Assembly: GCF_964194155.1 (NCBI RefSeq)
Contig: NC_135895.1
Coordinates: forward strand, 67,394,001 to 67,458,000
DNA length: 64,000 nt
Origin: Cetorhinus maximus
Lineage: Eukaryota
Direction: 5' to 3'
Below, one piece after another: positions 1 through 9,072 of the stretch. How positions within the stretch are numbered: the stretch's first letter is position 1; every line of letters starts with the position of its first letter. Below the pieces are notes generated by a model. That model made no database searches, was not told the origin of the DNA, and worked only from the letters and a program-made list of their open reading frames with translations. Position numbers and translations under genes: made by a program.

Positions 1-363
1 TTCCAGCAATTCCTCATCTGTCAGCTCCTTTGAAAACTCAGGTGTTTCTATTTTTAAGGCTCCTTGGCTTCCGCATAGCTGGTTCTTCAGTTCTTCCATT
101 TCTTTTTTATATTTCTTAGCTGTTTCCTGGGGAATTAAATATTGTTGTGCTTTCTCAACTAATTGATTCTTCATCTTGACCAGAGGTATGCTGAATTCTT
201 TCTGTTCTTCCTCGTACCTTTTTAGTGGTACAAATTGGGATCTGAGGAAATCTTGCAATATGCAAAAGTTCTTTAGCAGATTCTCCTCTTCTTTTTGGAC
301 ATTACTGACTTCAACTCGAACTTTGTCCTGAAGCATCAGCTCTATAAGTTCCTTTTGTTGATT
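1..363 (-). other. Open coiled-coil frame inside the Gypsy element, UACA/RAI14/ANKRD24-like (candidate captured host sequence)
   Basis: Hand translation, no stop: NQQKELIELMLQDKVRVEVSNVQKEEENLLKNFCILQDFLRSQFVPLKRYEEEQKEFSIPLVKMKNQLVEKAQQYLIPQETAKKYKKEMEELKNQLCGSQGALKIETPEFSKELTDEELLE. No RT motifs where RT should start. Confidence 0.6.
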
Positions 364-1746
364 ATATACAGGCTCCTTTTTGCAACAGCGACTTTTCCTG
401 CTTCTGGTTGAGGTCTCAGTAATCTCTCTAGATTGATCTCTCTTAACCAATTTCTTTCGAGGAGACTCAGTCCTCTGCCTGCCATCACCATTATGGGTAG
501 ATTTGCAGACTGGCTTCTATATTAAAGTGGAACCTTGCATGTACCTCTTGCTCGTATGCCTTCACTAGTATACGTCTTTAATCTAGCATGAGTTTTCCAG
601 CTTTAGTGAGTGGCCACCTCCATTCAGATACTTAAACGTGTGTTCCCCTATAACTGTCATGGATGTGCCTGTATCTGCCTCCATTCGGTTAGGTTTTCTG
701 TTGACTTCTACTGTCACGTAGATTGGCTCTGTTTTACCCATTTTTAAGTTGTGTAGCGAGTAAATATCTGACTCTGTTGCTTCTGGTTCCTCCATTATAT
801 AAATTTCACGACTTCTGCCTTTTTGATTAAGATTTTGCCTCAATCTCTCTTTGCAATGTCGCATAATGTACCCATTGTGATGACAGTAGAAACACTCAGT
901 TCTTTTAAATTGTCATTCATTTGCAAGCTGTCTGGTTCCAATTCTGCTATTATTAATGTGGTTTTTATCCGTTAAGCCACTGCTTTTTGCTGGTCTGTTA
1001 ATGGTGGCTGTTTCCCCGCTTTTCCGCGGAGCCCAGCACTTTCGTGCCATTTCTAAACAGTGTCTCCCTCCCGATGTGAAGGATGGTGCCATTTTGTGCT
1101 CCTGAATGTCTATGAATCCCTGACTGTGGTCTCCATTACGAGCGCCAACTCCAGCACTTTGCTGAAGTCTAAATTTGTTTCTGACAATGACCTTTGTTGA
1201 ATGGCATCTTCATTAATCCCACATGCTAATCGGTCTCTTAACATGTCGTTAATCGCGTCCCGAACTCTCAGTGCTCTGTCAGTTGTTTTAAGACTGCTAT
1301 GTAGCAAGCGACTGTCTCTCCAGGGGTGCAACACCTTGAACTGAATTTAAAACGCTGCATTGTTACCAATGGTTTCGGCCAAAATTGATTTTTCGCAAGA
1401 TTCACCAACTCATCAAAGCTCGTGGAATCTGGGGCGTTGGGTGCGGTTAGGCTACGAATTAGGCTGTATGTTTTACTGCTACATGTCAATAAGAAGATCG
1501 CTCGCCTCTTCCCCTACCCTGATATGTCATTGTCCAAAAAGAAAAACGTGAGGTGTTCAATATAATGTGGTTTGATTGGTGATCTGATCAAACAGTTCGA
1601 TGCGGCCAAATTGTGGCATTATGGAGGGAGATAACTTGGACGACTATGTTGAGGGCTGTACCTACAGTCGGCCTGCGAGGCTCAGCTGATTCACCTCAGT
1701 TGAGTTTTCGTGGCTTTCCTTGGTGTTGTCGATTGGTCGTGTTTTG

Positions 1747-1757
1747 CCTCATCGTCA
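1747..1757 (-). promoter_or_regulatory. Primer-binding site (decayed)
   Basis: TGACGATGAGG, a CpG-decay-like variant of the TGGCGACGAGG PBS recalled for this Gypsy group, directly after the LTR. Confidence 0.65.
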
Positions 1758-1759
1758 GT

Positions 1760-2042
1760 TGTTCTACTGCGGGGTTGCTTTGCTCTCGAACCGGTTTCAC
1801 ACTTATCTGTCGGCGGGTGAGTCAATAACTGCAGTCACAGAGACCAATATGAAATGAAGCACATGTTATTTATTTACACAGAAAACAGAGTACAAACATG
1901 ATGTGTGCTTCTCCAACCAGAACCTACTCGAGACCAAATCTTCACATTGAAGCCGCATTACACAGCAATTAGGTCGTATAGTCATGTGGTCAATCTGTTC
2001 ACATTCTCTTAAAGGTGTATTGTGCCACAGATTACCACAACA
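1760..2042 (-). repeat. 5' LTR of the Gypsy element
   Basis: Minus strand begins TGTTGTGG and ends AGAACA, contains AATAAA (~1866-1875), and is followed after 2 nt by a PBS-like motif. Confidence 0.75.
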
Positions 2043-4525
2043 GCGGAATCTTCCCCATCACAGTCACCTTGAGGGCAGCGTGTGGAGGGGGTGAGACTCC
2101 AGGCTAGTAGGAAGGATCTGACGGGGTGGGCCTTTCTTACCACCAGCCAAGCTACATCTTGGTGCGTGTTTGAAAGTTCTGGCGATGAGCCATCCTGCCA
2201 AATGACTTTGACAGTCTATTCAAGGAACCAGCCGACAGCATCCACCATCTCCTTTTCCAGCAGGGCCTCTAGGACATTGCGTGCAGACCACTGTCTGATG
2301 GACTTGTGGTCAAATGTGTTTCGCTGCATAAATTTTTTCATGAGGGACAGGGGGTACGGCACGGTCCAACTACTTTCATTCCGCGGCAGCGTGGCCAGAC
2401 CTATCCTTCGCAACACCGGGGACAGGTAGAACCTCAGCAAGTAATGACAGTTAGTGTTTGTGTACCGAGAGTCTACACACAGCTTGATGCAGCCACACAC
2501 AAAGGTGGCCATCAAGATGAGGGCAATGTTGGGCATGGTTTTCCCACTTTAGAGGTTTGTACATGATGTCCCTGTGAACATGGTCCATTTTTGATCTCCA
2601 GATAAAAGTGGAAGATAGCTCGGGTGATCACCACAGCACAGGAGTGAGGAATGGGCTAGACCCGTGCCACGTACAGCAACACTGGGATTGCCTCACACCT
2701 GATGACCAGGTCCTACCCACTATGGCGAGGGAGTGTAACTCCCACATGCCCAGTTTTTGTTTGACCATAGCTACTCGTTCCTTCCAGTTTCTAGCACATG
2801 CCCCGATCCCTCCGAACCATACCCCTAGCACCTTCAGGCAGTCTGACCTGACAGTGAGGGGGACAAAGAATTGGTCGGCCCAGTTCCCAAAGAACATGGC
2901 CTCGCTCTTGCCATGATTTACCTCGGCTCCTGAGATGAGTTTGAATTGGCAGCAGATGTTCATCAGTCTGCGCACCGACAGTGGATCTGAGCAGAAGCCG
3001 GCAACGTCGTCCATGTACAGGGAGGCTTTGACCCGAGTGCATCCACTGCCCAGAATTGTCACCCTTCATATGTCTAAATCCTTCCTGATGGACTCAGCAA
3101 AGGGTTCTATACAACACACAACTGCGCTACAGAGGTTTGTGTAGAGCATTTGGATCCAATTACGGATTCCCTCCCCAAACTCCATGTTGGAGAGCACATC
3201 CATCATGTAGGTGTGCGATACTCTGTCAAATGCCTTCTCCTGGTCCAGATTGATGAAGCAGGTGTCCACACCCCTGTCCCATCCATAGGCAATGGTATCC
3301 CTGAGTAGCGCAAGGCTGTCAGAGATCTTCCTGCAGGCCTGGACAGGGTGGATCACCAGCTCTGGAGCAGACTTGACCCGATTGGCGATGGCTTTGGGCA
3401 GAAGTTTATAGTCAACAGTGAAATATGTTGCCAATTTCTAATTTCCTCCTTTTCCTTCTTCTGTTTGTTGATGAGGGTCGTGATGCCTTTCCTTGTGGAT
3501 TCTGACATGCTGCTGGTTAGAAGCACACTGTCGTACACTTCCAGCAGGTCTGGGCTAATCCAGTCCCACAGAGCTAAAAAGAACTCTGCCGGTAAGCCAT
3601 TGCTTCCGCGAGCTTTACTCTTCTCAAAAGACTTGAGGGCCTTAGTCAGTTCATCCAGGGTTAGCAGGCTGTCCAGATTGTCCCCTGTACTGTCAATCTA
3701 AGACGTCCATGATAGAGGACAGGAAGGACTGGGAGGCCGTGCTGTCTGTGGGCTTCACGTCTTACAATCTGGCATAAAAGGATTTGCTGATCTTCAAAAT
3801 GTCAGAATGCAATGACTTTACTGAGCTGTTGTCTTCCTTCATGCTGCTGATCACAGAGCTTTCTCTGTGTGTACCTTTTGGAAGAAGAAACACCAGCACG
3901 TCTCATCCTGCTCCACCAAGTGGACTCTGGACCAAAAAATGACCTTAGAGGCCTCTGAGGCAAAGAGCACAGCTTGCTGGCTCTTCACCCCTTGGAGGTC
4001 CTCCTTGATATCAACCCTCATCGACTGCAGCTGGAGCAGATTCTGCATGTTCTCTTGGAGTCAGGACATCTCCCTTTGTTCCTTTCTAGCCTCCTGAACA
4101 CCTTTGAGGATGAGGAACCTCTTGGTGTTCTCTTTGATTGCTTCCCACCAGCGTGCTGGAGACTCAAGGGGTTTCACAGTTTTCCAACCTTTATAATCCC
4201 TTTTGAGCTCCTCAATGTTTTCTTGGGTCAACAGTTTCATGTTCAGTTTCCATGACCCCCTGCCAATTCTCTGGTCTTCCTGTAAGTGACAGTCAACCAG
4301 CAGGAGGCAGTGGTCAGAGAAGAACACTGGCTTGACGACTTGAACGTTTGGGACACAAATAGGAGGTCTATCCTGGAATGGATGGACCCGTCCGGCTGCG
4401 ACCAGGGTTGCTGAAGATGTTGTGCAGCTTTGCATCTTTTACTGTTTCCATCAGGAGCCTGGACGTGGCATCCAGTCTGCTGTCCACCCTGCCAGATCAT
4501 CCAGCCACATAAACTCACCTCCAAC
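2043..4525 (-). mobile_element. Tx1-type (L1 group) LINE ORF2 remnant
   Basis: APE motifs SRIDLLF, FSDHCLL, GRGSWKLN; RT motifs LDQEKAFDRVSH, YMDDV (~3006-3017), KVLGVWF; C-terminal CPQGDCDGED. The QG..LSP motif is deleted near 3125. Confidence 0.92.
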
Positions 4526-4754
4526 ACTTAAACTGATAACCTGACCAACACTTCACCACAGTGCTGAATGAGTGTGGCATTGTTGAAAATGTTGCCTATT
4601 GGATTAGTTGTCACAGCGACGCCCTGTCTGCCTGTCCTGGCGTATGTAAAAAGTACTGTGACACCACTATAAATAAAATTATAGATATATATAGATATTC
4701 TGACATGCTGATAAATATAGATACAACACAAAATAAATATAGGTACAATCAGAT

Positions 4755-5725: not shown

Positions 5726-5853
5726 AAAATCTAATTTATCAGTTCAACTTCACAGTTGCCAGCAGTAATGGGATATGAAGCTAAACTATACAAGACACAC
5801 ACCAGCTCATGTTTTGTCCAATACCACATAGAATTATTCATCATTGTAATTAT
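5726..5853 (+). repeat. 128-bp direct repeat, copy 2
   Basis: Matches 4755-4882. Confidence 0.95.
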
Positions 5854-6149
5854 TGAGTAGCAGCACCGATACCAGAGATGTAGCTTTCGATTAGTCACAA
5901 AATGTCTGGCTCTCAGCAGACTCAGTAGTTAATTATTTTACAAGTCCAATTAAGTAACTGTGACATATGCTCAATTATCTGACTTGCAATTATTTGTCTG
6001 TGTTGAATTTGATATTCCGAGCAATTAAAAACCTGCAAAACATTGACTTTCATGCACTCATTGTCCTGATTATTCAAATTATTCACCCTGCAAGCATCTG
6101 GGAGTGCCTATTGTATATTAAAGGCTTTGAATTTATTTTTGAAACACAC

Positions 6150-9072
6150 ATTCCAGGTTGGAGTTGGAGGCATTAGCAACATCTCGCAGTTTGCCACCCA
6201 CTATTGTTTAAGGCAGATCACTGAGGGTCTCTATTCACAGAGAAATAATTACATTTTGTTCTCTTTTGCCAGAGACAAGCAGGCAAATCAAGCATACGGC
6301 TTCACCAGGATTGTAGGTTTCCGCAGGGCATAGGTTGCTATTGACTGTGCACACACATCACTTGGTGGGCATCATCTGTCAGCTCTGACCTACATTGCAA
6401 CCAAAACAGATTCCATTCCCTCAGTGTTCAGCTGGTATGTGATCATACACAGAGAATCATGCAGGTCAATGGCTGGTATCCTAGCAACAGTCATGATGCC
6501 TTCATTCTGCTTCAGTTTACTATGCTGCCTGCATTTGACTCATCATGGCAAACCAAAGGGAGGATACAAAGCGACAAGGAGATACTGGAACTGACTGGCG
6601 GCAAGTCAGTAAAATACTTCGGATTCGTCATGGGCTGTTGATGTGGCTGTGACATGTGCAGAACACACATTCAATGAAAGCCTTGCTGCTACATACAACA
6701 TGTTAGAGCAGACCTTTGGCATGCTGAAACAACACTTCAGCTGTCTGGACCAAACATATGAACATACATAGAAATGTATGAATTAGGAGCAGGAGGCCAA
6801 AGACCCCTTGAGCCTGCTCTGCCATTTAATAAGATCATGGCTGATCTGATTGTGGCCTCAACTCCACATTCCCGCCTACCCCTGGTAACCTTTGACTCTC
6901 TTGTTAGTCAAGAACCTATCTACCCCTGCCTTAAAAATATTCCATGGTCCTGCCTCTGTTCTCTAGGGAAGAGAGTTCCAAAGTTTCATGACCCTCTGAG
7001 AGAAGGGCCAGCTAAACAGTGAGCAGCTGAGAAGCAGGAGGAGGAAGTGAGGAGGCAATCAATACAGCCCTTTTCTAGCCAGATTGTCTATGAAGAACTC
7101 ATCTGATTGCAAAAATAAAGGATACCATAAAGTAAACATTCCAAACTAATTTGTAAATGAATTCATGCTATATTTCACAAATAAGCACCCTTGGTATTCC
7201 CAGTCTTCCATGTGTCTTTGCCTGTCCTAGTGCTCCTATTCCAGAGGTTGCAGCATAGCTGGTAGAAGGCTGCTGTTTGTAATTTGAAGAGATTACAGAT
7301 GGATTTGGAGGATAACCTCGAGCAGCTCAGGCCCAACTGCAGCCTGTGCCATCTCAACATGGGTGGCAGCAGTCTGGCTGGCTGGCTGACAGGTAACAGC
7401 AAGGGTACTGGTGGGATGGGGGGACGAATGCTGTTTCCCTGAGAGAAGACAGCAGGTTCGTGTTCCACAGAGTCACTACATTCCCATTGGGCAGCATCTC
7501 AGCAATCCTAGTAACCTATTGGAGGACAGATTGCTGGACTGCTGTGACACTTTGCACAGTGTAATTCACAGCCATAATGGGAACAGTCAAAGCTTTCGTG
7601 TCAGCATGCTGACCTTGCATGAGATCAGTCTGAGCTTCCACTGGAGCACTCAGATGTTGGATAGCTGCTGCTTATGTAGTGGTGGAAGCTATATCGGGCT
7701 CCAGATGCTGTATCATAGTTGTGTCCACAAGTGTGTTAAAGGAGTTGGCCACCACATCTATGCTGGAAAGATGGGCTTCAAGCTCTGCACAAAGCCCTGT
7801 GCCAAGTTGATGCTGGACGTCTCCATGCTTTTGACTTGACAAGAGACTTTCTAGCAGGTTTCCCTTAAAGCACCAAGCAGTTTGTTGTACATACCCATAA
7901 ACTTTCTTCAGTCCGCTGTGCCATCAAAATGCTCATCTGAGCCTTTTGCAGCAAAACTCACGTGCGACCTCACCCTCTGGTGAGCTGACACTTGCACTAT
8001 CCTTGCCCCCACCCTAGCTTCAACCCCCTCATGCTCAGTGTCTTACCACATGCAGATGACACCTCTAGGTGATCTCCTAAGATCTGCACAGTGTCACTGT
8101 CTGAGGTGCTGGCTATGAGTGTGAAACTGAGTGAGGACGTATCTTCATCATCACTCTCTTGCTGTTTCTCCATTACCTAGCCAGGTTGCACCTGTTGAGT
8201 ATCTGAAAGAAAAAAGGGACAAGGGTAAGATTGTGATGATCGGAGGATGTAGTAAGAGGTGTATGTTTATACCACCTGCGGCTTGTAAATCAGAAGAGAG
8301 TGTGGGATGAGGGGGGAAGAGGGATGTGAGTAGGGGGACTAGGTATGAAGATACTGTCATCTTCAATGGTTTCAGTCCCATTGCAATGCTAAGCCTGTGA
8401 AGATGTGGTGAAGCTACAAATGTTAGGTAAGCGTGGTAATTAATAGAGATTCTTGGTAGGTGAGCGATGGGAGTGTGGTGAATTGAGCACTGCCTGATGA
8501 ACTGCAGTTGGTAGGATATGGTATTAGAAGATGCAGTCACTAACTTTGACTACTCATGTTAGGTCATCTTGAACATCTTGCGGCACTGTATCCAGGCCCC
8601 TGGGCTTGACTTCTGTCATTGACTTCCATGGATATCTCCCACTACCATCATTCACCATGATTCTGCGGATACAAGACATCACTCCTCCTTTCTACCTTTT
8701 TCAGCAAGGCTTCCATTGCAGTATTGGACAAAACTGGAGTCTGTTCTTTCCCACACTGAGCCACTTCCAACACAACTGCCAGCAGCTGCTCCAGCCACAA
8801 TGCAGCTCCCCTTTAAGAGCTGCAGGCTAGCTTTAAGAAATGCAGACAGTTTAGCTTTAAGTGGTGCTATCAAGTCACGATTGTGGTCCCCCATGTCCCC
8901 CTAATGCATCCAGCCAATGTACAGCATGGTTGGTGCTGGTGGCACACAGCAGTCATTCAAATGAGCAAGTAGCATGAGGTTGGTGCACTGCCTGCGTTAC
9001 GCTGAATGGGTGAGAGTTAATCATGCATTTTGATCTGCACACCCACTTTTGAGGGCTATTGAATTTGGCCCC
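6150..9072. mobile_element. Degenerate two-gene PIF/Harbinger transposon, left end lost
   Basis: Plus strand transposase pieces AIDCAHI, FHSLSVQLVCDH, YPSNSHDAFIL (6150-6750). Minus strand Myb/SANT-like pieces (SNTAMEALLKKVERRSDVLYP ~8660-8730). TIR GAATTTGGCCC at ~9061-9072. Confidence 0.8.
6760..7000 (-). mobile_element. CR1 (HER1-type) 3' tail inserted in the Harbinger transposase
   Basis: Same tail as 27470-27700 and 40135-40400. Confidence 0.8.

Follow-up and report, generated by a model that had tools for sequence, protein, structure and literature searches.

The stretch of DNA analyzed here, 64,000 nucleotides of a Cetorhinus maximus contig (NC_135895.1) and hereafter called the window, begins inside a retrotransposon: positions 1–2039 hold, on the minus strand, the larger part of a non-autonomous Gypsy element that is 2.96 kb long and has an LTR at either end (Table 1). 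Its gag, zinc knuckle, and aspartic protease are related to those of a Gypsy element with the order PR-RT-RH-IN. In a self-comparison, the two LTRs of the window copy were 82% identical over 288 columns (LTR distance, 0.173). The LTR ends are TG...CA, and 9 of the 16 copies that could be parsed automatically have a 5-bp target-site duplication with at most one mismatch; that of the window copy was parsed wrongly by the script and matches at four of five bases by eye. The protease, with the C-terminus SLLERNWLREINL (467–429, minus strand), scored below the cut-off against Pfam gag-asp_proteas (E = 0.0057), and a protein search found no full-length relatives of it (0 of 264). The element interrupts a decayed LINE ORF2 toward the 3' end of that frame (window 2040–4440 and L012:4776–5078), which lies on both sides of it, contains an endonuclease and an RT with YMDD, and is presumably Tx1-like. 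Further along, decayed frames at window 6070–6782 resemble what we take to be a Harbinger-type transposase.

Table 1. Parts of the Gypsy element; positions are those of the window unless a locus is named.
Feature	Position	Strand	Remarks
5' LTR	1758..2039	-	~282 bases, starts with TG; self-comparison
3' LTR	L012:5082-5368, 632-922 bases left of the window		partner of the 5' LTR; self-comparison
Degenerate primer-binding-site position	1745..1757	-	directly behind the 5' LTR; putative, assigned by position
gag	895..1619	-	ATG at 1619; window copy broken by frameshifts and stops
CCHC zinc knuckle	853..894	-	CFYCHHNGYIMRHC; translation
Aspartic protease	429..715	-	catalytic DTG 675-667; C-terminal NWLREINL 452-429; frameshifted in the window copy
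Protease-RT junction remnant (short linker)	381..428	-	comparison with family C and autonomous L129/L131
UACA coiled coil, first block	83..380	-	host exon G000:C27:11441701-11441353 less deletions of 48 and 3 bases
UACA coiled coil, second block	1..82	-	host G000:C27:11440902-11440804; joined across a 450-base deletion

An earlier note on this stretch, made from its letters alone, had proposed that no RT begins behind the protease and that an open, heptad-rich frame, one base out of frame with the protease, runs to the window edge instead. All of this held. The frame leaves the window and ends at a stop 141–143 bases outside (L012:5857–6516, 219 codons from stop to stop); left of the window, the second UACA block runs on into a tail from the donor family and a lysine/arginine-rich end. 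No RT comes after the protease; what follows the frame is a T-run, a stretch resembling an integrase tail, a polypurine tract, and the 3' LTR. That extension, which the note had recommended in the search for RT, integrase, and the 3' LTR, yielded the LTR and neither RT nor an integrase core. The offset of −1 between protease and coiled coil is private to the window copy, and the per-copy offsets locate the responsible one-base frameshift near the short linker.

The family to which the element belongs (family A) likewise lacks an RT, RNase H, and integrase core of its own, aligning with the autonomous element L131 only at 2113–3240 and 5832–6208. L131, presumably a Gypsy element of the K02A2.6/Mag-like fish/shark type, contains gag and, in order, PR, RVT_1, RT_RNaseH, Integrase_H2C2, and rve, between LTRs that are 92% alike. 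It resembles the window element at 65% nucleotide identity in gag–protease and family A at 61–71% in the integrase tail, polypurine tract, and LTR start, but it has the RT, RNase H, and integrase that family A is missing. L131 would thus represent the type of helper that family A needs; at only 65% likeness, it is not that helper itself.

Family A comprises at least 192 copies, since a 29-base pattern spanning the junction had 192 matches in the genome and its control had none, as expected from the proposal of a multicopy gag–protease–coiled-coil family. With window 1–420 as the query, 889 candidates were obtained; all 40 that were scored matched, the 39 other than the window copy at 86–88%. 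Our sample, drawn from several hundred copies, consisted of the window copy and 38 of these 39. The sampled copies have a common LTR-to-LTR layout and are old and mostly broken, with a median LTR distance of 0.13 (25 of 39 copies had a measurable pair). The suggestion that the fusion was in frame at the family level was borne out: protease and coiled coil share a frame in 27 of the 37 alignable copies, and zero was the commonest offset in each of the seven intervals into which the sequence between the gag ATG and the stop was divided, least clearly across the protease (14 of 36). This indicates that the family A masters encoded a single Gag–protease–coiled-coil frame. The catalytic DTG is retained in 22 of 37 copies, and a K/R-rich tail at the end of the frame is common to the copies. 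Family A is therefore a non-autonomous Ty3/Gypsy family whose masters carried Gag, zinc knuckle, protease, coiled coil, basic tail, and stop between LTRs. The idea that the captured part had been spared the decay of gag and protease was not upheld: stops occupied 38 of 5,048 insert codons and 51 of 5,269 zinc knuckle–protease codons (p = 0.24), and because the host-frame codons are free of stops in 13 of 39 copies, an open insert in a single copy is unremarkable. In one small sequencing run, presumed to be RNA, 12 short contigs matched the element, mostly in the LTR and tail, which we do not count as evidence of expression.

The origin of the coiled coil from UACA, which the note had proposed, was confirmed. 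The window peptide is 48% identical, without gaps, to residues 940–1019 of shark UACA (P0002) over 80 amino acids. Of 8,000 candidates, a profile built from 13 natural copies matched two, each a shark UACA protein (E = 1e-20 and 5e-15), and of 1.84 billion representatives it matched four, a ray UACA and three short UACA-like proteins; the matches were thus limited to UACA and proteins derived from it, as the note required of a specific rather than a low-complexity match. The host gene lies on another contig (C27) as an intact 911-codon open exon, to which the window is 60% identical over 278 columns of nucleotides, the second block 46% over 99 bases. Only two blocks of this one exon stand between the LTRs, without ankyrin repeats or the exon structure of a resident gene. 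Because the piece falls wholly within one 2.7-kb exon, an mRNA origin cannot be demonstrated for it.

The part of UACA that lies upstream of the insert likewise recurs throughout the genome (13,109 candidates, 242 matches), and a second family, B, carries UACA DNA at all 18 loci at ~80% identity to the host. An LTR pair was detected in 11 of these loci, and neither the LTRs nor the internal parts of family B align with those of family A. Pfam called neither gag nor protease in family B, where gag was read by eye. Many loci share their limits in the host sequence, which lie near 4551 and 6101 on the reverse strand of L057, and a shortened form, B-short, has nested deletions of 102 and 450 bases, the former measured as 88 in two of eight B loci. 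In some family B copies, a UACA block stands out of host order, ahead of the main piece.

A third family, C, was found with a pattern designed for autonomous elements, which had 134 matches; of the 30 loci read, 28 carried the UACA piece (family C), one was autonomous (L129/L131), and one had no host match. Family C consists of the gag–protease of the A lineage, ~35 codons of protease–RT linker, and then ~570 bases of B-short, in which both the 450-base junction and the non-host tail of B are present; the insertion point lies just inside the start of RT. C2 has lost 63 bases more and A another 48. Each of the five shared deletions (102, 450, 63, 48, and 3 bases) is a multiple of three, although an exon whose repeats are in frame with one another favors in-frame deletions anyway. 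The mean identity to the host falls from 81% in B-long and 80% in B-short to 75% in C1, 73% in C2, and 63% in A, and a tree of the 237 shared columns forms a ladder in the same order, within which A is monophyletic (100/100) and nested in C2 (94/90 for A+C2). The root of this tree is arbitrary as drawn, and its direction is taken from the host. The shared deletions and the tree trace the UACA piece to a first capture by family B, where it was shortened, followed by a move into the A lineage and a further shortening, always in frame. The junctions are 25–35% diverged from the available donors. In the C2 loci L103, L121, L085, L112, L113, L116, and L118, RNase H and integrase of the autonomous clade are re-attached behind the fusion stop; the 3' halves of C2 vary, rejoining the autonomous element at ~3930–3990 or ~4540, while the cassette is constant, which gives at least two switch points. 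Three database proteins (P0012, P0013, and P0015), two of them annotated as uncharacterized shark genes, resemble the family C and B-short inserts; they could be transposon copies mistaken for genes, or copies that are expressed.

Two other accounts of the origin can be set against this route. One takes the open frame for a resident host exon beside a truncated Gypsy element, or for a low-complexity look-alike of a coiled coil. The single window peptide does fit such an account, having had no useful match in Pfam, in the PDB (best E = 0.38), or in the protein database (0 of 364 candidates), and only a lead in the ESM Atlas (best, 0.88). However, UACA is intact elsewhere, the insert lies between LTRs in hundreds of dispersed copies, and the profile is specific to UACA, so that this account is refuted and keeps practically no probability. 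The other, close to the view of the earlier note that the element itself captured host RNA, is that family A acquired UACA mRNA on its own, straight from the host; it does match the host exon directly. We consider it very improbable: the 450-base deletion and the non-host tail are common to A, B-short, and C, although B is unrelated to A, and A stands at the tip of the ladder, inside C2.

We estimated dN/dS from pairwise distances among natural copies minus the within-group distance, leaving out 6 of 30 C-type loci (L102, L111, L117, L119, L127, and L129) and 3 of 18 B loci (L060, L061, and L068) because of truncation or insertions. For the UACA segment, NG86 gave 0.16 [0.08–0.31] from C1 to A and 0.22 [0.10–0.41] from C2 to A, against 0.55 and 1.35 in shifted frames; the transition-corrected values were 0.37 [0.21–0.61] and 0.41 [0.24–0.69]. 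The values vary with method, and the synonymous sites are nearly saturated; those obtained by raw NG86 in comparisons with the host were saturated and set aside. The early steps, at 0.70 [0.38–1.30] from B-short to C1 and 0.57 [0.32–1.14] from C1 to C2 (transition-corrected), were not clearly below 1, and the constraint on the coiled coil was two to four times weaker than that on zinc knuckle–protease (0.11–0.17, transition-corrected). Of the host hydrophobic positions, 20 of 22 are kept, and no new proline was fixed in 78 positions. Between lineages, purifying selection on the UACA coiled coil, read in the host frame, was thus moderate, with a net dN/dS of ~0.2–0.4. Within family A, private mutations across the 39 copies are neutral (pN/pS, 1.02), unlike those expected of a domesticated gene in these copies, whereas shared alleles are constrained (0.40; p = 0.014), which indicates moderate selection on the active masters and not on the inserted copies.

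TPR is a nuclear-basket protein. A part of it is carried by B-long (PF25481, E = 8.5e-13), in which up to 1.35 kb of UACA exon is followed in frame by at least eight spliced TPR exons (L058–L074, e.g., L064:1556–5914). In L064, eight host TPR blocks spread over 14 kb are joined without introns, which is direct evidence of mRNA capture for this piece; spliced TPR exon junctions occur in families B and D alike. A genome search with PF25481 gave 1,687 candidates, and all 150 scored matched. The eleven TPR loci read as clade D (L091–L097 and L107–L110) carry no UACA and form a third, SCAN-gag Gypsy clade, in which the N-terminal coiled coil of TPR, beginning in the first coding exon, occupies the position of the UACA piece. 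In five of the eleven, a long frame runs into TPR from a region that looks protease-like by eye, from characteristic motifs and without a Pfam call, and in L092 (L092:3036–5042), SCAN, zinc knuckle, and TPR lie within one 669-codon frame. One TPR-carrying element (L091:2858–4674) contains an internal tandem array within a 777-codon open frame and has an LTR 73–77% like that of family A. The TPR copies at G000:C24 (four places), C215, C1272, and C1433 have identical scores and similar flanks and probably lie within segmental duplications, not new insertions.

What the coiled coil does can be approached through structure prediction. A homodimer model of the coiled coil of a natural copy, L044 (not the window copy), is an in-register parallel dimer (score 0.46 against 0.00 for the best of three controls; contacts agree 100%; pLDDT at least 84). 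Solved homodimers attained the same mark in 21 of 30 microbial and 17 of 29 eukaryotic cases, and single chains in none (0 of 23 and 0 of 30); the result for L044 may reflect the predictor's memory of coiled coils. Autonomous relatives such as L131 would supply the RT and integrase that mobilize family A, and the cassette would have passed between lineages by template switching of co-packaged RNAs. The parallel dimer could take over the dimerization that RT/IN provides behind the protease, and the shortened polyprotein would then still pair, co-assemble, and be processed; action of the Gag–PR–coiled-coil protein in cis would explain selection on an element without RT. We give about an even chance to this model, in which the coiled coil is a dimerization module replacing RT in a cis-acting Gag–PR polyprotein that relies on a helper's RT and integrase. 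Two systems offer parallels. A heterologous coiled coil, a leucine zipper, behind the HIV-1 protease drives dimerization and raises Gag–PR multimerization and cleavage (PMC3291649), and the TPR N-terminus constitutively dimerizes the enzyme fused to it in TPR-MET (PMC11398868). The former is a laboratory construct and the latter an oncogene, whereas family A is natural and heritable, its function being putative. The zipper construct also cleaved prematurely and yielded fewer particles (PMC3291649), which counts against the dimerization mechanism. As family B has no Pfam protease, the first role of the UACA piece was not protease activation, and any first use would have been on Gag.

The coiled coil might instead be a passenger or spacer, selected only as an open frame with a soluble helical tail (for translation-coupled packaging or RNA stability) and without a specific partner. 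The progressive shrinkage of the UACA piece from 1.5 kb to ~0.4 kb, the weak constraint at the early steps, the apparent fitness of two different host genes for the slot, and the stop-poor, tolerant nature of E/K/Q-rich exons all agree with this, but the need for an open frame alone predicts a dN/dS of ~1, against 0.16–0.41 from C to A with intervals below 0.7, and the hydrophobic core has been retained; we regard it as rather unlikely. Less probable still is an engagement of the host, in which the coiled coil pairs with UACA/TPR or their partners, either to bring the particle to the cytoskeleton or the nuclear pore or to serve as a decoy, and the basic tail is a nuclear-localization or RNA-binding signal. 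Both donors are long coiled-coil proteins, TPR being one of the nuclear basket, and the K/R-rich tail recurs among the copies; however, the identity of the A piece to the host is down to 63% in nucleotides and ~48% in amino acids, and its internal deletions bring together distant parts of UACA. Returning to dimerization, a broader form of that model is that shark Gypsy elements arrived more than once at a parasitic layout of Gag, protease, and host coiled coil, the captured UACA or TPR piece being an exchangeable dimerization module that replaces RT and is traded between clades, with RT-less elements out-amplifying their helpers; we hold this tentatively, at somewhat less than an even chance.

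LTR capture of host RNA, two-gene chimeras, re-mobilization, selected captures, and shared modules are already known. In metazoan LTR-mediated retroposition, host RNA is set between element arms by template switching (PMC5131818). The retrocopies described there, as here, sometimes combine two genes, are often in frame, and can move again; they are mostly young and of low copy number, whereas here the captured sequence is fused to the Gag–protease frame of the element in hundreds of copies, with a long master lineage, a move to a second Gypsy clade, and purifying selection. The crocodilian ERV captures, KIT-ligand in CrocERV29 and nectin3 in CrocERV31 (PMC4299795), are, like family A, vertebrate LTR elements with captured host coding sequence, several copies, and purifying selection; they are retroviral, with separate or env-replacing ORFs and nine and six copies, whereas family A is a Gypsy family with RT replaced, an in-frame protease fusion, and a structural coiled coil. 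Bdelloid LTR retrotransposons also share an acquired module among unrelated lineages, but that module (ORF3) accompanies an intact gag and pol and is enzymatic or resembles env (PMC5408684); it does not put a host exon in the place of pol. In the literature searched, which did not extend to Repbase, Dfam, or most subscription journals, no description was found of Gypsy elements with UACA or TPR or of RT giving way to a host coiled coil, and the families may already stand under repeat-library names.

When LTR elements capture host genes, the usual outcome is taken to be retrocopies in small numbers. In the elements described here, a captured exon settled as an enduring, selected component of a polyprotein, passed from one lineage to another unrelated one, and rose to hundreds to thousands of copies, and a second host coiled coil, that of TPR, occupies the equivalent slot in another clade. 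As a caution for annotation, the "uncharacterized" UACA- and TPR-like shark gene models (P0012 and P0013) may be transposon copies. The elements provide a natural parallel to protease–leucine-zipper constructs and a dated series, with no absolute age attached, in which to test why RT-less elements retain protein-coding capacity.
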